Part shown: positions 5,843 to 57,425 of the stretch, piece after piece | How positions within the stretch are numbered: the stretch's first letter is position 1 | Layout of the letters: the number at the start of each line of letters is the position of its first letter | Origin: Nanobdellota archaeon | GTDB taxonomy: Archaea; Nanobdellota; Nanobdellia; Woesearchaeales; UBA10107 | Length of the DNA stretch: 64,000 bases | Assembly: GCA_042571125.1 (NCBI GenBank) | Contig: JBHPFU010000001.1 | Location: 259,230-323,229, forward strand | Direction: 5' to 3' | Notes under the pieces: generated by a model | The model's database searches: none | Seen by the model: only the letters and a program-made list of their open reading frames with translations | Told to the model about the DNA's origin: nothing | Made by a program: the position numbers and the translations under genes

Positions 5843-6586
5843 ATGTTCACACACAACATAGATCCTGTTTTATTTAATCTATTCGGATTAGAGATAAGAT
5901 ACTATGGAGTTGTCTTTTTAGTAGGATTCATTATTGCTTATTTTTTCCTGAATTTCTTGGCAAAAGAAAGAAAATTAAAGATAAAAAAAGATGATGTGTT
6001 AGATCTTCTTGTTTACATTGCGGTTGGTGCTGTGATTGGTGCAAGAATCCTGCATGTTTTAGAAGAGTTCAGTTTTTACATTTCAAATCCTTCCGAAATT
6101 ATAGCAATTTGGCACGGAGGCCTATCGTTTTACGGAGCAGCAGTCGGAGCAGCTCTAACCGGTTTATTATTTTGTAAGAAAAAGAAGATTAAATTCTATG
6201 ATATTGCAGACATGCTAGTCATTCCTTTAGCACTTGGGTTAGCTATGGGCAGGATATCAAATTTCATAAATGCAGAGCTATACGGAAAAATAACAGATCT
6301 TAACTGGTGCGTAAACTTTCCGAACGCAGAAGGATGCAGACATCCATCACAGATATATGAATCTTTCAAGAATCTAGCAATCTTTTTTGTCCTATTTTTT
6401 AGTAGGAATAAAAAACTCCCAAAAGGGGCTCTGTTCTGGTCTTTCATAACATTATATTCTTTCTTAAGGTTCTTTATGGAGTTCTTCAGAGAGCAAACGG
6501 CTCTCTTTTTAGGGCTTAGTGTATCTCAATTCTTAGCAATACTCGCCTTTATCACAGGATTGTTTTTTCTCATTAAAAAGAAGTAA
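5843..6586 (+). CDS. lgt: Prolipoprotein diacylglyceryl transferase
   Basis: IRYYG, IGARI, WHGGLSFYG, GRISNFINAELYG, HPSQIYE, RFFMEFFR motifs of bacterial Lgt. Confidence 0.92.
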   Translation: MFTHNIDPVLFNLFGLEIRYYGVVFLVGFIIAYFFLNFLAKERKLKIKKDDVLDLLVYIAVGAVIGARILHVLEEFSFYISNPSEIIAIWHGGLSFYGAAVGAALTGLLFCKKKKIKFYDIADMLVIPLALGLAMGRISNFINAELYGKITDLNWCVNFPNAEGCRHPSQIYESFKNLAIFFVLFFSRNKKLPKGALFWSFITLYSFLRFFMEFFREQTALFLGLSVSQFLAILAFITGLFFLIKKK

Positions 6587-10016: not shown

Positions 10017-10121
10017 GGGCCTATAGTATAGCCTGGATAGTACGACCGGCTTCGGAGAGGAAAGCGAGCGAGCTTTACTCGCAGTTACCGGTAGACGGGG
10101 GTTCGAATCCTCCTGGGCCCG
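10017..10121 (+). tRNA. tRNA-Arg(TCG) with ~31-nt intron at 37/38 (about 10056-10086)
   Basis: Acceptor GGGCCTA/TGGGCCC, D-loop GGATAG, anticodon stem ACCGG/CCGGT with CT-TCG-G, T-arm GGGGG-TTCGAAT-CCTCC. Confidence 0.88.
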
Positions 10122-44843: not shown

Positions 44844-46658
44844 ATGGCTAAACAAGAAAAAAAGGCAAAAGAAGAAGAAATGCCTGATGAACTGAAAGAC
44901 CTTCCGCCAGAGGTCCAAAAAAAGCTTAAAGCAATTAAAGAGAAAGTAGAGAAGTTCAAGAAAAAAGTTCTAACTAAATTTGAGAAATATGTTCTAGGTA
45001 TTGCATTGCTTCCTCCGGAAAAACCAAAAGAAGGAGAAAAGCCAAGCGAAAATATCAATACATTAATTCTTGTTGATGATTCTGACTCAAAAGAGATGGG
45101 CAAAGAAGAGTTAGCAGATAAGCTTCATAAAATAATAGAGGAAATGGCTAAAGAAGTCGATAAAAACATTAAGGTTGAGACAGTTATCCTATCTGAACTT
45201 TGGCAGGACTGTTCTGACGGAAAATACGATTTACTGCAAATGATTGCAATAAGCGCTCCTGTTTATGACAAAGGAATGCTTGCAGCAATAAAAATATCAG
45301 AAGTCCACAAACAGATGGTTCTAAAGAAATTCGAAAAATATATTGTGAGCTATGTTTTAGCAGGTTCATTTGTTCAGGGAAAACCAAATCCGCATGATAT
45401 TGATGTTTACATTGTTATTGATGATACAGATGTCAAAAGAATGACAAGAACAGAACTAAAAGATAAGTTAAGAGCGATAATCATTGGAATGGCAATCGAA
45501 GCAGGACAGATCACAGGGATTGAAGGAAAACTTCACGTCCAGGTTTACATACTAACGGATTTCTGGGATTCACTAAAAGAAGCAAATCCGGTTATACTTA
45601 CTTTCCTGCGGGACGGTGTTCCGTTCTATGATCGAGGAGTTTTCACAGCATGGAAACAATTATTGAAGATGGGAAAGATCAAACCCTCTCCAGAAGCTAT
45701 TGAGATGTACATGAGTTCAGGAGAGCAGGTTATTGAGAGAGTTAGATTCAAATTAAATGACATAGGTATGGAAGATATTTTTTATGCAATCCTAACTCCG
45801 TCTCAAGCAGCTCTGATGTTATATGGCGTATCTCCGCCAACACCAAGAGAGACCGCATCCCAGATGAGAGAATTATTTGTTAAGAAAGAAAAGATCCTTG
45901 AAGAAGAATATGTAAAGATTTTTGAGAAGGTATTCAAATTAAGAAAAGAGATGGAATATGAAAAGAAAAAACAATTCACAGGAAAAGAGATTGACGATCT
46001 TCTTAAAGATGCTCAAAAATATCTTGGAAGATTAAAGAAACTTTACGAGCAGATTGATACTATGAAAGAAAATGAGAACATGCTTAATATTTATGAAAGC
46101 TCTATCACAGTGATAAGGGATGTTCTGAGATCAGAAGATGTTGAACGTACTAAAGATGTTGAAGCAATCGCAATGTTCAAGACAGAGCTTGTCAATACGG
46201 GAAAGATTCCAGAGAGGTACTTAAGAATATTAAATAATATTGTAAAAGGAAAGAAAGATTACGATCTAAATAAATTAACAAGACCAGAAATAGAAAAAGT
46301 AAGAAAAGATTCAAGAGAATTTTTTAAGTTTTTGATTGAGTATATCCAAAGAAAACGTGGGCAAGAATTAGAAAGAACAAAAATAAGAATAAAACACGGC
46401 GATAAATACGGAGAAGTGACTTTGCTTGGAGAAGAAGCATTCATTATATATGATATTGATGCTCAGGAAAAAGAAGTTACAAAAGCGAAAATAAAACCGA
46501 ACGGCTCACTTGGTTCTGTGACACGCTCTTCATTAGAAGAATTTGAAGAAGCATTATCAAAAGTAGAAATTCCTAAGAAAGCTTTCATCAAAGAAGCAAT
46601 CTTTGGAGACTTAACCAAAATATTCGGCGAGAATATGGAAGTTCTAATTAATTACTAG
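44844..46658 (+). CDS. Tandem nucleotidyltransferase-domain + HEPN-like protein
   Basis: Degenerate first NTase domain; second with LAGSF..G...HDIDV; HEPN-like FYAILTPSQAALMLYG..P...LRKEMEY. Confidence 0.7.
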   Translation: MAKQEKKAKEEEMPDELKDLPPEVQKKLKAIKEKVEKFKKKVLTKFEKYVLGIALLPPEKPKEGEKPSENINTLILVDDSDSKEMGKEELADKLHKIIEEMAKEVDKNIKVETVILSELWQDCSDGKYDLLQMIAISAPVYDKGMLAAIKISEVHKQMVLKKFEKYIVSYVLAGSFVQGKPNPHDIDVYIVIDDTDVKRMTRTELKDKLRAIIIGMAIEAGQITGIEGKLHVQVYILTDFWDSLKEANPVILTFLRDGVPFYDRGVFTAWKQLLKMGKIKPSPEAIEMYMSSGEQVIERVRFKLNDIGMEDIFYAILTPSQAALMLYGVSPPTPRETASQMRELFVKKEKILEEEYVKIFEKVFKLRKEMEYEKKKQFTGKEIDDLLKDAQKYLGRLKKLYEQIDTMKENENMLNIYESSITVIRDVLRSEDVERTKDVEAIAMFKTELVNTGKIPERYLRILNNIVKGKKDYDLNKLTRPEIEKVRKDSREFFKFLIEYIQRKRGQELERTKIRIKHGDKYGEVTLLGEEAFIIYDIDAQEKEVTKAKIKPNGSLGSVTRSSLEEFEEALSKVEIPKKAFIKEAIFGDLTKIFGENMEVLINY

Positions 46659-47126: not shown

Positions 47127-47672
47127 ATGGCTGAAGATATGGATTTTAAGGCTACAAGACATAGTGCGAGGATTAGATTCGAAGGACTGGCAGATATGGA
47201 AGGCCTTTTTCAGATGATCCGTGAATGGCTCCACTATAGAAGATTTGAGGTTCATGAACCAGCTCATAAAAGGAAACCAATGCCTCGCGGTTTTGAGCAT
47301 GAAACTACATTCTATGGAGAAAGAAAAGAATCAGACTATGTTATGTTTATAATTAATGTATATGTGCACTCTCATTTCACAGAAGATGTAGAGATAATAG
47401 AAAACGGAGTAAAGAAAAAGATACAAAAATCAGGATCTATGGTTATCGAAATCTGGCCTACTCTAAGATTAGACTGGCAAAACAGATGGGAAACATCAGA
47501 ATTCAAAAAGAAACTTAGAAAGTTCTTTCATGACGTGATAATCAAAACATACATCGAGATTATTTGGTGGGACAGATTGTACTATATTACATACAAATTG
47601 CATACAAAAATCAAAGAATTTTTAAATATGCAGAGCCATTATAACGCATATGAGAATATGTGGCAGACCTAG
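47127..47672 (+). CDS. Hypothetical protein, paralog of downstream gene
   Basis: Shares FEGL/YEGI, DY..[FY].I.V, DW/DI...RWE and LH..[IV]K.FLN with 47682. Confidence 0.75.
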   Translation: MAEDMDFKATRHSARIRFEGLADMEGLFQMIREWLHYRRFEVHEPAHKRKPMPRGFEHETTFYGERKESDYVMFIINVYVHSHFTEDVEIIENGVKKKIQKSGSMVIEIWPTLRLDWQNRWETSEFKKKLRKFFHDVIIKTYIEIIWWDRLYYITYKLHTKIKEFLNMQSHYNAYENMWQT

Positions 47673-47681
47673 GTGACCAAA

Positions 47682-48182
47682 ATGCCTGAAAGAAAAATTG
47701 TTGTTGACGAACTGCATCTGGATTACGAAGGTATATTCGATGCAACACAATTGCTTAATGTAATTGAGGATTTCTTTAGAACTCGCGGTTTTGACAAGAG
47801 AGAACTTAGCAATGTTGAGAGTGTAAGACCTTCTGGAAAACATATTGAACTTGTTCTTATGCCTTGGAAAACAGTAACAGACTATGCAAGATATGAGATT
47901 AAAGTAAAAATTGACATGGACAATCTTAAAGAAGTTGATGTTAAGAAGGACGGAGCTAAGCTTAAACTTAACCAGGGCAAAATAAAGTTTGTATTTGATT
48001 CATACTTACTTACAGATATCGAGGGCAGATGGGAAGCAAAACCAATATTCTTCTTCATAAGAACATTTGTTGATAAGTTCTTCTTTAGGTTCTATACTAG
48101 CAAATGGGAAGAACAACTTATCCAGTATACAAAAGAGCTTCATGGAGAAGTCAAATCATTCTTGAATTTAAACAGATATTAG
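47682..48182 (+). CDS. Hypothetical protein, paralog of upstream gene
   Basis: AGGTGA RBS; same motifs as above. Confidence 0.75.
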   Translation: MPERKIVVDELHLDYEGIFDATQLLNVIEDFFRTRGFDKRELSNVESVRPSGKHIELVLMPWKTVTDYARYEIKVKIDMDNLKEVDVKKDGAKLKLNQGKIKFVFDSYLLTDIEGRWEAKPIFFFIRTFVDKFFFRFYTSKWEEQLIQYTKELHGEVKSFLNLNRY

Positions 48183-48227: not shown

Positions 48228-48349
48228 GCGGGGGTAGCAAAGTCTGGTCAAATGCGCAGGACTTAAGATGGGACAGCACAACACCGGTTGTGTATAAGAT
48301 ATCCTGTCCCTTAGTGGGTTCGTGGGTTCGAATCCCATCCCCCGCACCA
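48228..48349 (+). tRNA. tRNA-Leu(TAA) with 33-nt intron (48268-48300), encoded CCA
   Basis: GCGGGGG/CCCCCGC-ACCA, anticodon stem CAGGA/TCCTG, long variable arm; BHB helix CTTA/TAAG. Confidence 0.93.
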
Positions 48350-48430: not shown

Positions 48431-48591
48431 GTTTTTACTACTGACATATAACAAAAAGAGAAAAGTTTATATACTCCTATAGGGTATAGAGAATACTGAG
48501 AAGGGGTTGGTAATAGACGAAATAAAGGCTTAAATAGGCTGATTTGAGCTCTATTTGGCTAATAAACAGCAAATATAGGTGCAATAATAAA

Positions 48592-50223
48592 ATGAGTCAA
48601 GAAATACAGTATGAAAATGAAAATAAAGCTAATTTAGGTTCTAAAGTTTTTATCGCAGGTCTTGCATTAGCAACACCAGCACTTCTTAGTGCAGGAGAAG
48701 CTGAAGTTAAGAACATTCTAAAAGGAAGTACAGACATTAAAATATATCAAGCAGGAGATACAGGATTCGAACATTATGTTAATAAGAAAAATACATTTGA
48801 TTTAAGCACAATAGATCAAGCAAAAGCAAGTATTCTTGCAGCTTATACAGACAATGATGGAAAACGTTGGGCTACTGTTTATGATGCTAAAGACAAAAAT
48901 ATATCAAATAGAATTCCTATGTGGAGTAAAGTTGAAAAAGCCGCATGGAAATCTATGGGGGAGAATATAAGTCCAGAAGAGCTTGAAAAAGCACAAGATC
49001 ATTATTTAAGACAGTTCAATAGAGATGAAAGCAAGATAACAGATGCTTTTGATTCTTGGGAAAAGAACATAAAAGGAAAAACAACTGTAGCATACCAAGG
49101 TAAGCCATTATCAGCTGTACCTGAACTAAGGTACGCTTCTCTTGATCCAAACAAGAGTAATCGAGCTCTAAATCACAGATTTGTTCGTGAAAGCGGTATA
49201 GCTGGAAAAAAGTTCTACAAATATGAGCAAATTGATTCCACAACTATTGATGGAACTGTATGCGGTGGTTGCGAACTTACAGGCCCCGGTCTTATCACAT
49301 TTATCAGCCCAGAAACAGGACAAGTTGAGTTCTATGCTGGCAAGGATGGAAAAATCAAGAAATTAAAATCTCCGACAGATGATTCAAGAGCTATCAGCGA
49401 AGCATTCATAAATGCAGATAGAGGAAACAAGTATTTTGATCTAGAAGGAAGCTTTACTTTAGTTCCACTTAATAGAGCAGCATCAGATTCACAAACTTCA
49501 CCAACAAAATACGGAAGTAAGTTCTCACTTGATAATATGCTTAGAGTTCAAGTTAAAGTTCCTAAAGTTGGCGGAGAACTTGATGTTGTATTAGAACATG
49601 AGAGACAAAGATACAAAAATCCTGAGTTTGCTGAAGAATTAACAAACACAGACAAAAGAATGAGAATTGGATACTTGAAAGATGTCAAAGGAATAAATCT
49701 GGGAGCTGGATTAACAATGCCAGGACAGAAATTTGTTGCGGATACAACAGATGATACTCCAAATCACATTGTAAATCCGATTGCAGTCGAACTTAACTCA
49801 AAAGGAAAAGGCGGATATGCTTTACTAGAAGTAGGAGATTCATATTTCTTGCTTGAAGCAAGCGAATCCGATGTTAATCAAAAAACTACAAATCTTGCTG
49901 TTCCTATACCTAGTGAACAAACTACTGAAACAAACGGAAGAGCAAGCGAAACAAGAATCGCAATGGGATCGCAGTATAATGGATTAGGTCGCGTACATCC
50001 TTCATTAGCAAAGTACAGCCTTGTTGGAGCGATTGAGATCTCAAACAAGAGAGGAATGATTCATAACAGAACTATTGATCTTAAGTATGGTGTTAAGGCA
50101 AATGTAATAGAAGGACTAAACGCATACGTAATGCTTAAGAATGGAATGGAATCTGGAAAAGATGTGATAGGTTCAAGTACAGTAGGCATGAAAATAGGAG
50201 CAGAATACAAATTCGGAAAATGA
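48592..50223 (+). CDS. Exported protein with C-terminal amphipathic beta-strand (barrel-like) region
   Basis: ATG 48592; hydrophobic leader VFIAGLALATPALLSAG; alternating strands ending GMKIGAEYKFGK. Confidence 0.55.
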   Translation: MSQEIQYENENKANLGSKVFIAGLALATPALLSAGEAEVKNILKGSTDIKIYQAGDTGFEHYVNKKNTFDLSTIDQAKASILAAYTDNDGKRWATVYDAKDKNISNRIPMWSKVEKAAWKSMGENISPEELEKAQDHYLRQFNRDESKITDAFDSWEKNIKGKTTVAYQGKPLSAVPELRYASLDPNKSNRALNHRFVRESGIAGKKFYKYEQIDSTTIDGTVCGGCELTGPGLITFISPETGQVEFYAGKDGKIKKLKSPTDDSRAISEAFINADRGNKYFDLEGSFTLVPLNRAASDSQTSPTKYGSKFSLDNMLRVQVKVPKVGGELDVVLEHERQRYKNPEFAEELTNTDKRMRIGYLKDVKGINLGAGLTMPGQKFVADTTDDTPNHIVNPIAVELNSKGKGGYALLEVGDSYFLLEASESDVNQKTTNLAVPIPSEQTTETNGRASETRIAMGSQYNGLGRVHPSLAKYSLVGAIEISNKRGMIHNRTIDLKYGVKANVIEGLNAYVMLKNGMESGKDVIGSSTVGMKIGAEYKFGK

Positions 50224-53200
50224 ACAAAACAACACTTTCAATATTTTTAGTATTTCTTTTATGTTTAGTTACTGTATCCGCTACTGGAGGAGTGGTTGTA
50301 ACACCAAGTTCTGCTCAGGTTGGAGCTACACTAACATGTTCAATGCCAGGAGAAAGAGCTAATGATAATTTTTACTGGTCTGGAGCTGTCAGTACAACTG
50401 GAAAAGTTGTTTCTGCAAACGTACCAGGAACATACACCTGTATAATTAAAAGAAATTATCCTCAGGTTGGAGAACTTGAACTAGGAAGAGCTTCTGCAAC
50501 AATAAGTGCAGTACCAGTACCGCCTCCTGTAAATCAAGCACCTACTGCTAATTTTAATTCAAATTCACCCGTAGTTAACGGAACAAATGTCACATTCACA
50601 GATACAAGCACAGATTCTGACGGAACTGTTGTTGCATGGGAATGGAACTTTGGAGATAGTGCAAATTCAACAGTACAAGATCCACAACATCTTTATTCAA
50701 CAACTGGAAACTATACTGTAACACTAACAGTTACTGATAATGATGGAGCAGCTAGCACACCATTCAATAGTGTAGTAGAAGTTACATCAGTTCCAACAAC
50801 ATGCCCTGCACCAGCAAGCGGAAACTGGACAATAAACGGAACACAAAATGTATATTGTGAGGGTGTAACATTAAATTTAGATCAAATAGATATATATGAC
50901 AGCGCAACAGCTGTTTTCAATAATTCTGCCCTAAATATAAATAATGGAATAAGTACAAATAATAATACAATTTTAACTTTAGAAAATTCAACATTGGATG
51001 AGATATACGCAAATGCTAATTCATCTATTAGTGTTGTAAATTCAAACATCACTGACGAAATCGATGTATCTGACAATGCTACTCTTAATGTACAAACAAG
51101 CGATGTTGATGAAATATATTCTACAACAGACGCAAATGTTAACGTAGATAATTCTATTGTTTCAGTTCTAACAATTAACTTAATTGGGGGAGGATCATAC
51201 TCCGGTCTTATTGCAGGAACAACAGTGACAACCACAGTAGGAACTGTTAATCTTGTAAACACCTATGTTGGTTCTGTAGGAGTACAGTTCGCAAATGGAA
51301 TTTTCAATATAGATTCATTCCAACTTAATATGGTTTCTTGGATATTCCCTGATGTCACATTAAACATGCTAGATTCAACTTTAGATGAAATTTTTATTAC
51401 ATCAAATACGCTTTTTAATGCAGATAATGTAACAATTAATGACATACAGTTAATGGGAGACAATTCAACAGTTAATTTCACATCATCTACTTTAGTACAG
51501 TCACTTAGAGCAAACGTAATTGCGACTTTTAATAATTACATACTTGGAACTGTTAACATGTTAGTGCCTCCTTTAGCGACTCAAATACAAGTAAACAACA
51601 CACTCGAAAGACACTACCCTGTTACTGTTGTTAATCAAACAGGACCAATGAATGGAGCTCAAGTTAATATTACTAATTCAACAAGCGATGTTTTATTCAG
51701 CGGAGCAACAGATGCGACAGGAAACTTAGAAGTGGTTCTGACATTTGATAATAACACTGAGGCAGATGTTTATGATGTTTATGTTGATGGAAATCTTCAA
51801 GGAAATATAAGTTTGCTGACAAGCACACCAATTATAATCAATATTAGTTCAATACCGCTCCCGCCTATTGAATTAATCTTAGTAAACGAATTCGAGCAAA
51901 ATCCTATTGTTAATGGAACAGAATGGGTAGAGCTTTACAACCCAGGAGCATCCACAGTTGATATCAGCGCATGGGAGATATGGGATGGATTAACAACACC
52001 TAGCTTGATACACACTGTTCCTGCAAACACAACACTTGCTGCTGACAGTTATTATGTAGCAAATATAAGCGGTACTCAACTGAATAATGCAGATGAATAT
52101 GTAACACTTTACGATCAATATTCAAGAGAGGTAGATAATACATCAACACTAGCAGATGCAGCACCTTTAGCATACTGTTGGGCAAGATTCCCTAATGGTG
52201 CACCAAGTTGGAATTTCCAGAACTGTACATACGGAGCAACAAATAACCTTCCTGGCGTAAACTTACCGCCACAGATAACATCAAATTTCACACTTCCTGA
52301 TGTATCTTCATCTATTAATATTTCAACTAATGTAACGTTCTTCATTAATGTAATGGATCCTGAAGGTAGCAATATGACTATTAACTGGTCTGTTGATGGG
52401 GTGGTTAATCAAACATACCTTGATTATCCGAATGGTTCAGCACTTGTACCAACTTTAGATTATACATTCGATGAAAATAGAAGCTATCTTGTAGAAGTAT
52501 TTGTTTATGATAATGAATCAGCTTATGATTACATGAACTGGACAGTACAAGTTGTTAATGGAACTATTCCAGACACAACAGCACCAGCAGCAATCACAGG
52601 ATTGGCTTTGATAGGAGCAACTAATGAGACATTAACATGGACATGGATGAATCCTGCAGACCCTGATTTCGATCATACAATAGTTTTCCTTGACGGAGTG
52701 AATGTTGTAAATATAACAAACAGCGGTACTGGCGTGGATAATTATACTGCAACAGGATTGCTTAATTACACGCAGCACACAATCAATGTTCATACTGTTG
52801 ATACATCTGGAAACGAAAACCTAACAAATGTAACAGATACTCAATTTACATTACAGAATAATGATACAACAGCACCGGTTATATCAAATGTTCAAGCAGT
52901 AAGCATTACAAATGAATCTGCAATAATCAACTGGACTACAGATGAAGCATCAGATTCAAGCATAAACGTGGAAGGCACTGTAAACACATTCATTGGTCTG
53001 GTAACTAATCACTCAGTTCCAACGCCTGGAACACTAGCACCAAACACAACATACTTTTATAATGTAACAAGCTGTGATGCTAATAGTAACTGCGCAACAT
53101 CAGTTCAATACAACTTTACAACACAAGCAAATATAAACCTAGCACCAAATGCTACAATCACAAATCCATTAACAGGAAGCCAATACCAGAACGGATCAGC

Positions 53201-55031
53201 AATCGTATTCAATGGTACAGGGGTTGACCTAGAAGATGGAAACCTGACAGGAGCATCATTAGTATGGACTTCTGACTTAGATGGAGCACTAGGAACAGGA
53301 AATGGATTATCAGTTTCAACATTAACTATTGGAAATCACACAATCACATTAACAGCAACAGATTCAGGACTTTTAACAGATAATGATTCAATACAAGTTG
53401 AAGTAATTTTAACACCAACAAATAATCAGCCAGTATTTGATAGTTCAGCTGTTAATACAAATGTTCATGTTACATCACCGTACTCATTTGATGTAAATGC
53501 AAGCGACGCAGATCTATTAGATGTACTAACATTTACAGATAACCTTGCTGAGTTTGTTATTAATTCAACAAGCGGACTAATCACATTCACACCAAATACA
53601 GTAGGAATGGTTAGCGGAATATTAACAGTTTGTGATAACTCTGGATTCCCTAATAACTGTACAAACCAAACATTTGACTTAAATGTTACAAACAGTGCAC
53701 CACAATTCAACACATCAGCTGTAAACACAAATGTTCATGTAGGCACATTATTCACATTTGATGTAAATGCATCAGATGCTGACCTTGACACTCTATCATT
53801 CACAGATGATATTGCTGAGTTTGTTATAGATCCAGTTACAGGAGTAATCAGCTTTACACCTGCTAATATTAGTACAATCGCAGGAACAATTACTGTTTGC
53901 GATAACACAGAATCACCAAACAACTGTACAACTCAAGCATTCAATCTTGATGTTACAAACAACGCACCAGTTCTAAACGGAATTGGAGCTCAGGCAGTTA
54001 ACGAAGGTTCATCTTTGAACATTCCTTTAAGTTCAACTGACGCTGACAGCGATACATTAGTACTTGCTGCATCTAACTTACCTAATGGTTCAAGTCTTAC
54101 AGATAATGGAGACGGAACAGGATCATTCAACTGGACACCAGGATTTGCTGACTCAGGAGTTTATGTTGTTACATTCAATGTAACAGATCCTTACAATGGA
54201 TTAGATTCAGAAGCTGTTACAATTACTGTAAATGATAATGTTCAAAACGGATTTATTGACGGATTTGTAAGAGATGACTTAGGAGGAGATATTGCAGGAG
54301 CAACAGTTGAAATCAAAAACGGATCATTCACAGTGGCTTCAGGAATATCTGGGATCACAGGATACTTCAACATAACTATAACTGAAGGAACATACGATGT
54401 TTTAGTATACTCACTAGGATTTGTTGATAACCAAACAAACGGAGTTGTTGTAACTGAATTTGCAACAACAAGAAATAATGCTACTCTACAGACTGTTGTA
54501 ACGACTGGAGACATAAATGGTACTGTAACAGACGGTACAAATAATATTTTCGCAGCAACAGTTCAATTAAAACAAGGAGCATCTGTAATCGCTTCAACAA
54601 CAACAGATATGTTCGGATACTATTCATTTACTGGAGAAAATATTGGTGCATATGATTTAGTTGTAATCAAACCAGCATTTACTGACTCAACAACTGCTGT
54701 AAGTATCTCAGCAACACCAACTACACAAAATGTTGTATTATCAGCACCTGGAACTGCAGGAACAATCTCAGGAACAATAAGAGATGCTCTAAACGCTCCA
54801 ATAACTGCTGTAACAAATGTAACAATCACAAGTTCAACAACAGGAGTTGTACAAATTGTCCAAACAGATGGAACTGGTTACTATGTATTTAACGGATTGC
54901 CAGCAACTGTTGGATTTACTTATGATCTAGATGCTGATCTGGTAGGAGCATACACACAAACATTCCCACCATCAGGATTATCATTAACACAAGGACAAAA
55001 TCTTGCTGGACAAGATATTTACATGATATAA
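50220..55031 (+). CDS. Large secreted surface glycoprotein (PKD, beta-helix-like, lamin-tail, FN3, Ig/cadherin-like, carboxypeptidase-regulatory-like domains)
   Basis: Signal peptide; PKD WEWNFGD..P.HLY; LTD VNEFEQNP..EWVELYN; FN3 segments; many N-x-S/T sequons. Confidence 0.85.
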   Translation: MNKTTLSIFLVFLLCLVTVSATGGVVVTPSSAQVGATLTCSMPGERANDNFYWSGAVSTTGKVVSANVPGTYTCIIKRNYPQVGELELGRASATISAVPVPPPVNQAPTANFNSNSPVVNGTNVTFTDTSTDSDGTVVAWEWNFGDSANSTVQDPQHLYSTTGNYTVTLTVTDNDGAASTPFNSVVEVTSVPTTCPAPASGNWTINGTQNVYCEGVTLNLDQIDIYDSATAVFNNSALNINNGISTNNNTILTLENSTLDEIYANANSSISVVNSNITDEIDVSDNATLNVQTSDVDEIYSTTDANVNVDNSIVSVLTINLIGGGSYSGLIAGTTVTTTVGTVNLVNTYVGSVGVQFANGIFNIDSFQLNMVSWIFPDVTLNMLDSTLDEIFITSNTLFNADNVTINDIQLMGDNSTVNFTSSTLVQSLRANVIATFNNYILGTVNMLVPPLATQIQVNNTLERHYPVTVVNQTGPMNGAQVNITNSTSDVLFSGATDATGNLEVVLTFDNNTEADVYDVYVDGNLQGNISLLTSTPIIINISSIPLPPIELILVNEFEQNPIVNGTEWVELYNPGASTVDISAWEIWDGLTTPSLIHTVPANTTLAADSYYVANISGTQLNNADEYVTLYDQYSREVDNTSTLADAAPLAYCWARFPNGAPSWNFQNCTYGATNNLPGVNLPPQITSNFTLPDVSSSINISTNVTFFINVMDPEGSNMTINWSVDGVVNQTYLDYPNGSALVPTLDYTFDENRSYLVEVFVYDNESAYDYMNWTVQVVNGTIPDTTAPAAITGLALIGATNETLTWTWMNPADPDFDHTIVFLDGVNVVNITNSGTGVDNYTATGLLNYTQHTINVHTVDTSGNENLTNVTDTQFTLQNNDTTAPVISNVQAVSITNESAIINWTTDEASDSSINVEGTVNTFIGLVTNHSVPTPGTLAPNTTYFYNVTSCDANSNCATSVQYNFTTQANINLAPNATITNPLTGSQYQNGSAIVFNGTGVDLEDGNLTGASLVWTSDLDGALGTGNGLSVSTLTIGNHTITLTATDSGLLTDNDSIQVEVILTPTNNQPVFDSSAVNTNVHVTSPYSFDVNASDADLLDVLTFTDNLAEFVINSTSGLITFTPNTVGMVSGILTVCDNSGFPNNCTNQTFDLNVTNSAPQFNTSAVNTNVHVGTLFTFDVNASDADLDTLSFTDDIAEFVIDPVTGVISFTPANISTIAGTITVCDNTESPNNCTTQAFNLDVTNNAPVLNGIGAQAVNEGSSLNIPLSSTDADSDTLVLAASNLPNGSSLTDNGDGTGSFNWTPGFADSGVYVVTFNVTDPYNGLDSEAVTITVNDNVQNGFIDGFVRDDLGGDIAGATVEIKNGSFTVASGISGITGYFNITITEGTYDVLVYSLGFVDNQTNGVVVTEFATTRNNATLQTVVTTGDINGTVTDGTNNIFAATVQLKQGASVIASTTTDMFGYYSFTGENIGAYDLVVIKPAFTDSTTAVSISATPTTQNVVLSAPGTAGTISGTIRDALNAPITAVTNVTITSSTTGVVQIVQTDGTGYYVFNGLPATVGFTYDLDADLVGAYTQTFPPSGLSLTQGQNLAGQDIYMI
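53421..53960 (+). repeat. Internal tandem duplication (~270 nt x2) of an Ig/cadherin-like module
   Basis: SAVNTNVHV..FDVNASDADL..FTD..AEFVI...G.I.FTP...TVCDN...PNNCT.Q.F.L.VTN occurs twice. Confidence 0.85.
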
Positions 55032-55032
55032 A

Positions 55033-55554
55033 ATGAAAAAACCAAATGCAATTTTAACTTGCGGCGTTGGCCTGGCAGCAGTTTTGGCTAGCGGAGGCGC
55101 TTGTTCAACACTACAAAATACAGGAAGCACAGCAAGACAAGAGATGGTGGAACAAAGTAAAGCTTTTGAAAAACAAGGAGATTACGATAAAGCAGTTTCA
55201 TACTTAGCAGAAGCAGGCGAATATAGAAAAGCTAGCAGACTTGCGGAGAGAGAGAAACTTTACAGTACTGCTGCGCATTGGGCAGAATGGGCAGGACAAG
55301 AATATACTGCAAAAAGATTATACAAAGAAGGTCTTGAAGTCTATGAAAAAACAGGAGATTATGGTAATGCTGCACGATGTGCAAACGGATTAGGTCAGAT
55401 CGAAAAAGCAATCCTATATTATGAAAAAGCGGGAGAGTATTCTGTTGCTGGCCACCTTGCAGAAGAAGAAGGTATGTTTGAAGAATCAGAACGACTTTAC
55501 AAAAAAAGTAGAGAATCAAAAAAACCGAATAAGGTCGAGTATCGCTTAAAATGA
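55033..55554 (+). CDS. Putative lipoprotein with TPR/SNAP-like repeats
   Basis: Leader MKKPNAILTCGVGLAAVLASGGAC; repeats FEKQGDYDKA, YEKTGDYGNAA, YEKAGEYSVA. Confidence 0.75.
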   Translation: MKKPNAILTCGVGLAAVLASGGACSTLQNTGSTARQEMVEQSKAFEKQGDYDKAVSYLAEAGEYRKASRLAEREKLYSTAAHWAEWAGQEYTAKRLYKEGLEVYEKTGDYGNAARCANGLGQIEKAILYYEKAGEYSVAGHLAEEEGMFEESERLYKKSRESKKPNKVEYRLK

Positions 55555-57050
55555 AAGCTAAACTATTAACAATAATTGTAATGTTTTTCTTAGCTATGGC
55601 TACAGCATTAGCTGCACCAGTCTCTGGTACAGTTACTGATGCTGGAACCTCAACTGGAATTGCTAACGCATTAGTTGAAGTATTTGATACAACTGGTACT
55701 TTACTAAACTCAACAAATGCTGATGCTAATGGAACATACTCTGTTGATAGTGTTGGAACAGGATTAAGAATAATCAATGCTTCATCTGTTGGATACAATA
55801 CTCAAAGTCAGCCTAGATTTGTAGGTGGCGGAGGAGTAACAGCTAATTTTATATTAGGACCTATTGCTTCATACACATTAAGCGGTACTGAAAGCGGTAA
55901 CCTGGCTAATGTAGATATTAACCTAAAGCAAGGAGGAGTTACTGTTTTCGCAACTCAAACAATTGCTGGAGGAGCATACACATTAAATGTATTAAATGGA
56001 ACTTACACATTCGAAGCTTCATTAGTTGGATATGATACTTATACAAATAATTCAGTTGTTATAGCTGGAAACACAGTTCATAACTTTGCATTATCAGGTT
56101 CTGTAACAACAGGAACTGCTGCGGGATATGTATTAAACACAACTGGTTCACCATTATCTGGAGCTGATGTAAGATTATACTTAGGCGCAGGAATGGTTGC
56201 ACAAGATACAACAGATCCTACAGGATATTACTCTATGACATACAATCAAGGAGATTACAATCTAACAGCTTCATTTACAGGATATAACAGTCAGACACAA
56301 GCAGTCACACTAAACGGCGGACAAACAACAGATACTAACTTTACACTCCCTGCTCAAGGAGCAACATGTACGCAAAGCATAGCAAGCTATGGTTCATGGA
56401 GCACATGCAGCGGTGGAACACAATCAAGATCAATCACATACAATGATTATAACAATGTATGCGGAAATACAGTAACAGTACCGAATGCTCAATCACAGAG
56501 CTGTAGCACTGGCGGTTCATCTGGAGGATCAAACAGAGATCCAGTTGTATCATTAACACCGCAGATTAAATATCCGGACTTTTTCGAATACAATCCTATT
56601 CAATACACTTTGAATAGAATGGATACTGCAATCTTTTACCATGATGATGTTAAATACACTGTTATGATAACAGACATTCAAGAACATACTGCAACATTTA
56701 AACTATTCCCTACATACGATGAGTTCCAAGCAGAAGAAGGAGAGATCCTTGAATTCGAACTTAATGAGGAAGATAGTTTGATGCTTACATTACTAGACTC
56801 AACAGTTAATTCAGAACTTTTCGAAGCTTCAACAGTTAATGTAAACTTACTATTAGATGTTCCTGAAGATGATGAAGAGGAAGAAGACAAACCTGTTGTT
56901 CAGAAGATTAAAGATGCAGTTGTTAAAGTAGTTGGAGAAGTAGTTCCAGAAAACCTAGCACCTTCAGTAGCAGTTGGTGTAAGCGTAAGTGCTTCAACAG
57001 TTGTATTAGGCCTATTGATATTCTTTATAATTAGAAGAGTAACTGGATAA
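55551..57050 (+). CDS. Membrane-anchored surface protein with three carboxypeptidase-regulatory-like domains and a TSP1-like motif
   Basis: Signal peptide ALA; SGTVTD..G.Y..GY repeats; GSWSTCSGGTQSR; C-terminal TM + RR. Confidence 0.8.
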   Translation: MKAKLLTIIVMFFLAMATALAAPVSGTVTDAGTSTGIANALVEVFDTTGTLLNSTNADANGTYSVDSVGTGLRIINASSVGYNTQSQPRFVGGGGVTANFILGPIASYTLSGTESGNLANVDINLKQGGVTVFATQTIAGGAYTLNVLNGTYTFEASLVGYDTYTNNSVVIAGNTVHNFALSGSVTTGTAAGYVLNTTGSPLSGADVRLYLGAGMVAQDTTDPTGYYSMTYNQGDYNLTASFTGYNSQTQAVTLNGGQTTDTNFTLPAQGATCTQSIASYGSWSTCSGGTQSRSITYNDYNNVCGNTVTVPNAQSQSCSTGGSSGGSNRDPVVSLTPQIKYPDFFEYNPIQYTLNRMDTAIFYHDDVKYTVMITDIQEHTATFKLFPTYDEFQAEEGEILEFELNEEDSLMLTLLDSTVNSELFEASTVNVNLLLDVPEDDEEEEDKPVVQKIKDAVVKVVGEVVPENLAPSVAVGVSVSASTVVLGLLIFFIIRRVTG

Positions 57051-57352: not shown

Positions 57353-57425
57353 GGGCCTGTGGTCTAGCGGCTATGACATCTCGTTGACTTCGAGGAGATC
57401 GCCAGTTCGATTCTGGCCAGGCCCA
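57353..57425 (+). tRNA. tRNA-Val(GAC)
   Basis: GGGCCTG/CAGGCCC-A, TCTCG-TTGACTT-CGAGG, GCCAG-TTCGATT-CTGGC. Confidence 0.88.

Follow-up and report, generated by a model that had tools for sequence, protein, structure and literature searches.

Does an archaeon encode a β-barrel of the kind that bacteria place in their outer membranes? To our knowledge, transmembrane outer-membrane-type β-barrels are a hallmark of diderm bacteria and organelles, and none is known from archaea. The question is raised by a gene, here termed P0001, in a stretch of 64,000 nucleotides (the window; positions 259,230 to 323,229 of the forward strand of contig JBHPFU010000001.1, assembly GCA_042571125.1), which is the end of a 323-kb contig from a Nanobdellota archaeon with a small, DPANN-type genome (803 kb in 10 contigs, 80.75% complete, 0.26% contaminated). 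A preliminary description of this DNA had taken the C-terminal half of the encoded exported protein for an outer-membrane-type barrel. We find that this half is predicted to be barrel-like and that the gene belongs to a recurrent module with a gene for a giant adhesin. In the reading that we favor, which we hold to be about as apt to be wrong as right, P0001 would be a barrel-shaped socket tethering the head of that adhesin. The gene and its product are organized as follows:

48462..48476, plus strand: BRE/TATA-like box AAAGTTTATATACTC, a putative promoter about 120 nt 5' of the P0001 ATG, read from the sequence
48592..50223, plus strand: P0001, the barrel-protein gene, an open reading frame (ORF) of 543 aa with an ATG start at 48592
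48592..48696, plus strand: Sec-type signal peptide or signal anchor, residues 1-35, with the h-region VFIAGLALATPALLSAG
48697..49431, plus strand: variable N-domain, residues 36-280, fold unassigned, with no Pfam match, period-2 signal or alignable homolog half
49432..50220, plus strand: predicted 12-stranded outer-membrane-like β-barrel domain (C-domain), residues 281-543
50206..50220, plus strand: C-terminal tag YKFGK

An in-frame TTG at 48544, 5' of the ATG, is a less likely start. Residues 17-35 form the sole strongly hydrophobic 19-mer of P0001 (mean Kyte-Doolittle value 1.58 at residue 19), and signal-peptide-like N-terminal segments are also found in its homolog P0002 and in the positional analogs considered below; the segment in P0001 may be cleaved. 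The C-domain comprises 263 residues, is free of Cys and contains 10.3% Gly, with alternating hydrophobic and polar runs. All ten of the amphipathic strands quoted in the preliminary description are present in the translation of 48592-50220, and its starting point of about 49500 agrees with residue 305 at nucleotide 49504; the C-terminus reads GMKIGAEYKF-GK. These strands are placed as follows:

residues 316-323: MLRVQVKV
residues 330-337: LDVVLEHE
residues 357-363: MRIGYLK
residues 368-375: INLGAGLT
residues 407-414: GGYALLEV
residues 418-424: YFLLEAS
residues 454-462: TRIAMGSQY
residues 475-483: YSLVGAIEI
residues 495-505: IDLKYGVKANV
residues 509-515: LNAYVML

P0001 has a single homolog, P0002 (497 aa, on a 4-kb contig), on which a word-index search and a profile search against 1.84 billion representatives agree. 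The two are 43% identical over the C-domain only (264 aligned columns, residues 281-540 of P0001), their N-terminal halves being unrelated and not alignable. The alternation of hydrophobic residues is confined to the shared part: a detector of 9-residue dyad-amphipathic windows, calibrated with 1000 shuffles, counts 7 strands in residues 281-543 against 2.82 ± 1.36 in the shuffles (at least 7 in 6 of the 1000), and the period-2 hydrophobic moment of this domain has z = 2.5. The corresponding values for P0002 are 6 strands against 2.37 (10 of 1000 shuffles) and z = 3.4, and the N-domain of P0001 (36-280) gives no alternation signal (1 strand, z = -0.6).

From the sequence we derived a topology of 12 strands that is independent of the ESM Atlas and of ESMFold2 and was fixed in writing before the complex modeling described below. 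Turns of 5, 2, 3, 11 and 3 residues join its strands on the side of both termini, and loops of 16, 13, 26, 26, 6 and 7 residues join them on the opposite side:

predicted long loops L1-L6 of P0001: about residues 294-309, 342-354, 382-406, 428-452, 487-491 and 523-528

The indels that separate P0001 from P0002 all (7 of 7) fall in predicted connections. When the ten residues per strand nearest the turns are counted, one face is hydrophobic, with 3 charged residues in 60 and 4 Gly, whereas the other has 23 charged residues in 60 and 11 Gly. On this predicted topology and on the predicted complex, the domain would have a hydrophobic outward belt and a polar lumen. The ESM Atlas points in the same direction: the top feature score for residues 281-543 is 0.95, a value attained by shuffled proteins about once in 100, and the feature neighbors listed are all bacterial outer-membrane barrels (Tsx, OmpG, KdgM, autotransporter, Phage_OMP). 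The P0002 C-domain likewise scores 0.92-0.94 to OmpG, Tsx/OmpK, KdgM/NanC and CymA. The Atlas model of the P0001 C-domain superimposes with template-modeling (TM) scores of 0.60-0.70 (query-normalized, over 227-244 residues) on 9 of the 10 clusters listed, the tenth giving 0.49; eight of these nine are autotransporter β-domains and one, the third listed, carries no family name. The earlier claim of a β-barrel is thus supported for the C-terminal half, which is predicted to be barrel-like by the Atlas features and structure, the 12-strand topology and the complex model, and which may or may not reside in a membrane.

The partner predicted for this domain is encoded by the next gene. P0001 is the first gene of a four-gene operon that sits between tRNA-Thr and tRNA-Val, in a slot with the following features:

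47127..48182, plus strand: two small paralogous genes in tandem (products of 181 and 169 aa, without a Pfam match), upstream of the slot
48228-48346, plus strand: intron-bearing tRNA of 119 nt, a full-length tRNA model match, directly 5' of P0001
48359-48430, plus strand: tRNA-Thr(GGU), which with the preceding tRNA marks the upstream edge of the slot
50220..55031, plus strand: adhesin-like surface protein of 1603 aa with PKD, LTD, Big_9/He_PIG and CarboxypepD_reg domains
50283..50519, plus strand: head domain of this adhesin, residues 22-100, with two invariant Cys and one Trp (alignment A6)
55033..55554, plus strand: TPR protein of 173 aa, lipoprotein-like at its N-terminus (…LASGGAC) and ending VEYRLK
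55551..57050, plus strand: CarboxypepD_reg-repeat surface protein of 499 aa with a C-terminal transmembrane anchor, the last gene of the operon
57353..57425, plus strand: tRNA-Val(GAC), the downstream edge of the slot

The genes are tightly packed: the ATG of the adhesin overlaps the stop of P0001 (ATGA), the TPR gene abuts the adhesin gene, and the start of the 499-aa gene overlaps the stop of the TPR gene. No convincing integration-site repeats were found between the flanking tRNAs. The 1603-aa adhesin lacks a C-terminal transmembrane segment and hence would need a tether; Pfam finds nothing in its residues 1-104. We modeled residues 36-543 of P0001 (two-row alignment) with residues 22-115 of the adhesin (six-row alignment) using ESMFold2. 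The interface score ipSAE was 0.86, 0.36 and 0.81 across three runs (median 0.81), against 0.00 for the best of three controls. Of 80 solved complexes, 58 pass the scoring mark used, as do 2 of 110 mismatched pairs; as we supplied our own alignments, these counts apply here only approximately. The runs have at least 33% of their contacts in common, with pLDDT (predicted local distance difference test) of at least 80 for the adhesin partner and 60 for the barrel protein. On the barrel protein, the confident interface comprises 42 residues (for instance 350/352, 381/383, 399/401 and 430/432), every one of which maps to one of the six long loops or to within 3 residues of it; none is at a turn or in mid-strand, and the N-domain (36-280) makes no confident contact. 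On the adhesin, the interface residues are 22-24, 42-44, 46-51, 60-61 and 78-89. On all seven strands whose contacts are of a single parity, these lie on the face opposite to the hydrophobic one, which implies that the hydrophobic face points outward in the model. The complex model thus supports, short of demonstrating, binding of the adhesin head to the barrel loops.

We accordingly propose, as a working model, that this giant-adhesin operon of a Woesearchaeota-type DPANN archaeon encodes in P0001 an accessory protein of two domains that would be exported, putatively by Sec. Its C-terminal 263 residues would then fold into a 12-stranded outer-membrane-type barrel, with an outer belt that is hydrophobic and a lumen that is charged and rich in Gly; short turns would lie at the end bearing the termini, and six long loops opposite. 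The loop end and the upper lumen would hold the mature N-terminus of the adhesin together with its loops 42-51 and 78-89, and the barrel, as a socket, would thereby tie the adhesin, which lacks an anchor of its own, to the envelope of the cell. At the opposite, presumably cell-proximal end would be the N-domain and the YKFGK tail, and the hydrophobic belt could be embedded in a second lipid layer, in a surface layer (S-layer) or in an oligomer.

The orientation of the loops restricts where such a barrel could sit. When a barrel inserts into a membrane from outside, its termini stay on the side from which it came and its loops end up across the membrane. If the adhesin binds the loops, the barrel would therefore span a layer outside the cytoplasmic membrane or not reside in a bilayer. 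The same geometry bears on the idea that P0001 is a host-directed pore, inserted in the membrane of a host as a conduit for nutrients or lipids to the symbiont. A small DPANN-type genome of 803 kb and the linkage of the gene to adhesins would suit such a role, and self-inserting monomeric barrels need no β-barrel assembly machinery (BAM), consistent with BamA not being found. Insertion from outside would, however, leave the head-binding loops of the modeled complex on the far side of the host membrane, and neither the Pfam nor the PDB sequence searches gave any similarity to known pore-forming toxins, so that we consider this idea decidedly improbable.

The pairing of a barrel-like protein with a giant adhesin is not confined to this locus. 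In the sister genomes G001, G002, G003 and G004, the slot holds a signal-peptide protein of 394-422 aa, whose C-terminal half is amphipathic and rich in Gly and aromatic residues, followed by a homologous giant adhesin. The analogous operon of G001 is also framed by tRNA-Thr and tRNA-Val, and the upstream gene pair (47127..48182) is kept in 5 of 5 sister genomes searched; the TPR gene, as query, gave no match in five sister genomes. In G004, a 237-aa ORF with a homing-endonuclease-like look (…LAELIGITIGDGCIS…) lies between the conserved pair and the slot (L021 3094-3807). By BLASTP, the slot protein of G001 (P0003) is 27% identical to that of G004 (E 2e-19) and matches that of G002 (E 1e-5), with no significant match between those of G002 and G004 directly (E 7.1); the strongest link between an analog and the present family joins P0003 to P0002 (E 0.007 in a database of six sequences). 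P0003 alone and a three-row profile (A4) retrieved the input proteins only. In Pfam, P0003 has sub-threshold matches to OMP_b-brl (E 0.0016, 19.1 bits against a cut-off of 28.7) and ShlB (E 0.0026), and besides these nothing of note.

The ShlB match bears on a further possibility, namely that P0001 is a translocator resembling those of two-partner secretion (TPS), in which the adhesin would be threaded through the barrel pore and its head recognized as TpsB recognizes the TPS domain. The gene order and translational coupling are like those of tpsB-tpsA, the N-terminal domain is conserved across the adhesins, and the predicted contact joins the extreme N-terminus of the adhesin to the barrel lumen. 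Conversely, the known TpsB mechanism relies on 16 strands and POTRA domains, and a barrel of 12 strands would not be wide enough for it; the genome yields no Omp85 or ShlB match and a sub-threshold POTRA match only. The adhesin, moreover, carries a Sec signal peptide itself, with folded Ig-like domains over 1600 residues, and the N-domain of P0001 is not conserved. On balance, we regard translocation through the barrel as improbable.

A search for further barrels, as the preliminary description had called for, gave a second barrel-like gene beside an adhesin in the source genome (C1:72116..76521):

C1:72116..74212: gene for the second barrel-like protein (698 aa), which has a signal peptide and a β-rich C-domain and ends ...IKATYKFGK (OMP_b-brl E 0.0025)
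C1:74209..76521: adhesin-like gene, 770 aa, with the same head domain, its start overlapped by the preceding gene

Genes weakly matching OMP_b-brl also lie directly 5' of adhesins with the same head in G005 and G010. The head, a domain of about 80 aa with two invariant Cys and one Trp, is common to the N-termini of these adhesins, and among 301 genomes of the order, 119 match its profile, a tally that includes five unpublished genomes. We examined 24 loci, of which 16, from 16 further genomes, could be assessed in that the head stands at the start of a signal-peptide ORF with upstream DNA available. In all 16, an ORF of at least 269 aa on the same strand ends between -88 and +11 nt from the adhesin start. 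Judged by the last 250 residues and with the ORFs of the source genome as background, 13 of these 16 upstream ORFs have at least 9.5% Gly and at most one Cys (background 15 of 370), and 12 have a period-2 z of at least 2 (background 5 of 150). A terminal strand of outer-membrane-like character lies within 3 residues of the end in 5 of the 16, against 26 of 674 other ORFs, and several end in aromatic residues (…GGLHVEF, …GFGVNARF, …AGVGFGF). OMP_b-brl matches 4 of the 24 upstream proteins below threshold, a count that is partly circular as up to 4 of the 24 were found via the same model. In a six-frame search it gave weak matches in 8 of 101 genomes, among them the source genome with its second locus, and of 14 control genomes it matched only 5, all diderm bacteria. 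The suggested envelope or attachment system therefore holds up as a recurrent, undescribed surface module with a downstream adhesin, which may or may not involve a second membrane or a host membrane.

Two further observations come from related genomes. In G010, a 275-aa signal-peptide protein ending ...DVKIPKIPISHY is encoded 5' of the barrel-like gene (L025 547-1371), from which some modules may carry two such accessory proteins. At locus L024 (G098:C19:3297-3467), a 195-aa ORF has a canonical-looking 8-strand OMP_b-brl domain that exceeds the cut-off (32.1 bits), a match to OMP_b-brl_2 (E 1.5e-5), a signal peptide and the ending ...GLVFYF; it lies on a short contig of this relative with a GC content of 0.44, and may represent either a true archaeal barrel or a bacterial contaminant in the G098 bin.

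Extended to the lineage, the proposal would be that Woesearchaeota-type DPANN archaea have membrane-embedded, outer-membrane-like barrels that are placed independently of BAM and serve as sockets for giant adhesins, with a YKFG[KF]-type tag sorting proteins to that compartment. We consider this possible but doubtful.

A number of considerations weigh against a barrel, and against a membrane barrel in particular. With regard to structure, AlphaFold2, given two-row alignments, reached a pLDDT of 27.2 for the full protein and 28.3 for the C-domain, and its models were not used (the low-confidence model has a short helix at 265-273, in a region not conserved in P0002). As AlphaFold2 was unusable, all structural statements rest on ESM predictors; the Atlas and ESMFold2 are not independent, being of the same language-model lineage. 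Their confidence in the barrel protein is itself low (pLDDT 0.56 and predicted TM-score 0.45 for whole P0001 in the Atlas, pLDDT 60 in the complex), and the lowest-scoring run of the complex reached only 0.36. The strand detector is crude and not discriminating, with 59 of 677 ORFs having at least 7 windows within 263 aa, and amphipathic strands occur in soluble β proteins too; a composite filter that isolates P0001 as 1 of 469 ORFs was tuned post hoc and is given no weight. Outside insertion into the cell's own membrane would place the adhesin-binding loops of the model in the cytoplasm.

With regard to sequence, P0001, its C-domain and P0002 match no Pfam family at E <= 10, and P0001 matches no outer-membrane hidden Markov model (HMM) at this E-value. 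The autotransporter model PF03797 has no match at E <= 10 in a six-frame search of the source genome and none in 101 genomes. Among 138 hhalign targets, comprising 7 outer-membrane proteins of E. coli (Tsx, OmpG, NanC, OmpT, FadL, OmpA and the Ag43 β-domain), 12 archaeal candidates and 119 ORFs of the source genome, the P0001/P0002 profile ranked the E. coli proteins like random proteins of its own genome (Tsx 15, OmpG 44, NanC 129). Homology of P0001 to its positional analogs is likewise undemonstrated (hhalign probability 0.12%, BLASTP E 0.3-3). Other searches were also negative: no homolog of the P0001 domain was recovered from 60 relatives by six-frame search, nor did pattern search with tblastn recover one from the contigs of JGI metagenomes and GTDB genomes, the PDB sequence searches gave nothing relevant to P0001, and NCBIfam gave a chance-level YD-repeat match only. 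PF13568 matched 1 of 101 genomes, which was not the source genome, and the gathering scores of PF13505 and PF13568 were reached neither by P0001, which has no match, nor by the positional analogs, which are sub-threshold. By sequence, P0001 is in no known family.

With regard to the cell, we know of no second membrane in this lineage, and the search for assembly machinery, for which the preliminary description had proposed BamA, TamA and POTRA homologs as targets, came back without support. The source genome has no Omp85/BamA (PF01103) match at E <= 1 and no ShlB match, and its POTRA (PF07244) match of 16.6 bits is below the cut-off for a model that matches archaeal controls too. As the genome is 80.75% complete, the absence of BAM machinery is unproven.

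The identification of the terminal G-x-x-Y-x-F as the β-signal read by BAM fares no better, given the lack of an Omp85/BamA match and the nature of the tail itself. No C-terminal aromatic β-signal is present in the pair, P0001 ending F-G-K and P0002 Y-K-H (...GYKH), so that the terminal Phe is not conserved. The strict motif stands at the very end of 3 of the 24 upstream proteins and within 3 residues of the end of 8 of them, against 26 of 674 other ORFs. YKFGK ends 3 of the 677 ORFs of the source genome, two being the barrel-like proteins and the third a helical-looking membrane protein of 265 aa, with four Gly-rich hydrophobic helices, encoded beside a 1628-aa surface protein; the variant YKFGF ends a 207-aa membrane protein beside a 2099-aa surface protein. 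A relaxed motif is found at 6 C-termini against 0.28 expected. The Y-K-F-G-[KF] or VEYRLK tails are located as follows:

window 50206-50220: tail of P0001
window 55537-55551: tail of the TPR protein
C1:72116-74212: tail of the second barrel-like protein
C1:223765-224562: tailed protein
C3:48269-48892: tailed protein

All five are exported or membrane proteins and all are encoded at giant-surface-protein loci. As the same tail occurs on non-barrel proteins of adhesin loci, YKFGK behaves as a tag shared by the accessory proteins of such loci rather than as a signal specific to barrels or to their assembly.

Many of these points would be accommodated if P0001 were a soluble or S-layer-associated adaptor, whose β-rich extracellular domain binds or chaperones the adhesin head without ever entering lipid, the hydrophobic face being buried in an oligomer or against an envelope protein. 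Assembly machinery was not found in the genome, no second membrane is known for the lineage, and neither AlphaFold2 model confirms a barrel. The stretches most conserved between P0001 and P0002 are polar (EHERQ, TNTDKRMRIGYL, MPGQKF, KGKGGY), a pattern seldom seen in membrane barrels, where the loops tend to vary; and the occurrence of YKFGK on non-barrel proteins suggests protein-protein docking. Against this, a closed 12-stranded barrel is too wide for a packed hydrophobic core, the parity of the contacts turns the hydrophobic face, with its 3 charged residues in 60, outward, and the listed ESM feature neighbors are all membrane barrels for both homologs. We consider the adaptor rather unlikely, and retain the barrel-shaped socket as our preferred reading.

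Whichever of these holds, the locus is archaeal. Genes for Rpp14/Pop5, the proteasome α subunit, SBDS, Rrp4, Rrp41 and Rrp42 lie at 38-42 kb of the window, 6-10 kb 5' of P0001, and these, together with two tRNAs that are presumably intron-bearing in view of their full-length model matches at 105 and 119 nt, confirm the archaeal setting asserted for this exported protein. The genes outside the slot to be noted here are:

5843..6586, plus strand: Lgt (prolipoprotein diacylglyceryl transferase), E 1.5e-73
10017-10121: tRNA of 105 nt, presumably intron-bearing, a full-length tRNA model match
44844-46658: protein of 604 aa, DUF6932/nucleotidyltransferase-like with weak HEPN signals, just 5' of the conserved gene pair

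Both intron-bearing tRNAs were overlooked by ARAGORN in bacterial mode. Lgt, whose presence had been noted before, is joined in the source genome by signal peptidase II/Lsp (C9:2150-2548, E 1.6e-32), for which the model matched only bacteria among the control genomes. These matches show the lipoprotein pathway of bacteria to be present in this archaeon, which is uninformative on a second membrane.

Lgt and Lsp, being of bacterial type, and the exclusively bacterial fold neighbors might be taken to indicate that P0001 is an artefact, i.e., mis-binned or mis-assembled bacterial DNA, or else a very recently transferred ordinary bacterial porin. The gene, however, is embedded in a contig of 323 kb, flanked by intron-bearing archaeal tRNAs and with the archaeal exosome/proteasome operon at a distance of 6-10 kb, and the GC content at the locus is 0.36-0.38 as against about 0.35 for the window. 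The slot and operon are syntenic in sister archaeal genomes, one of which is a single contig, and no bacterial sequence homolog exists among the 1.84 billion representatives. The archaeal genes and the synteny make the bacterial mis-assembly that had been named as a ground for refutation very unlikely, and the artefact as a whole, with the faintest likelihood of the explanations discussed here, is close to refuted.

The analysis turns an orphan archaeal protein into a member of a recurrent module of barrel-like protein and giant adhesin that occurs in many families of one DPANN order. If the barrel is membrane-embedded, it would entail either an undescribed outer lipid layer or BAM-independent placement of barrels in an archaeal or host envelope, and the envelope architecture of these uncultured symbionts as well as barrel assembly without BAM would need rethinking; if it is not, it would represent a new soluble use of the barrel fold. 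Either way, the two small domains, their predicted contact residues and the tag offer a handle on the display of adhesins thought to mediate host attachment.

Among the closest known systems are the type Va autotransporters (PF03797). Like them, P0001 has a Sec signal followed by a variable N-terminal part and a C-terminal domain, here about 260 aa long and predicted to have 12 strands, and the Atlas model has TM scores of 0.60-0.69 to their β-domains (8 of the 10 clusters listed). Autotransporters also have an α-helix that links their own passenger through the lumen; in P0001 the short helix at 265-273 might correspond to it, and in the complex model it is the adhesin head that fills the loop end. 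P0001 differs from them in that PF03797 has no HMM match, be it in P0001 itself, its genome or 100 relatives, in coming from a genome in which BamA was not found, in the two residues that follow its terminal Phe, and in that its predicted cargo is a separate polypeptide at the loop end rather than its own passenger in the lumen. The nearest language-model feature neighbors, KdgM/NanC, Tsx and OmpG (0.92-0.95), are similar in size and strand number, but have no sequence-profile similarity to P0001 and no counterpart to its adhesin link and N-domain. Two-partner secretion (TpsB/FhaC/ShlB with TpsA; PF03865/PF01103) offers the parallel of a barrel gene next to the gene for a very large adhesin whose N-terminus carries a conserved recognition domain; in the present system, however, there is no Omp85 or ShlB match, the POTRA match is sub-threshold, 12 rather than 16 strands are predicted, and the adhesin N-terminus has no TPS domain, its head (A6) being a distinct two-Cys domain.

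In function, there is a parallel with LapA-LapE of Pseudomonas fluorescens, described as a giant adhesin held by an N-terminal retention module in an outer-membrane pore (10.1101/198937). By that description, the systems have in common an anchorless, repeat-rich giant adhesin whose N-terminal domain is lodged, here by prediction, in a channel of the same locus. They differ in that LapE, a TolC-like trimer, forms the channel by which a type 1 system exports LapA, whereas the present barrel would be monomeric and 12-stranded and both proteins have Sec signals. In the literature searched, the one pointer to an outer-membrane-type barrel in an archaeon labelled DPANN is a single sentence in PMC12228718 on a possible Altiarchaeales relative of PopA; compared by description only, the PopA superfamily is an 8-strand, oligomeric, lipid-trapping family, and the Altiarchaeales are known to have a double membrane. 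A literature search, with most subscription journals outside its reach, found no description of outer-membrane-type barrels linked to adhesins in DPANN archaea. Thus, the fold and the idea of an adhesin in a pore are already known from bacteria, and what is new here are the sequences, the domain of life, the arrangement as separate polypeptides and the apparent lack of BAM.

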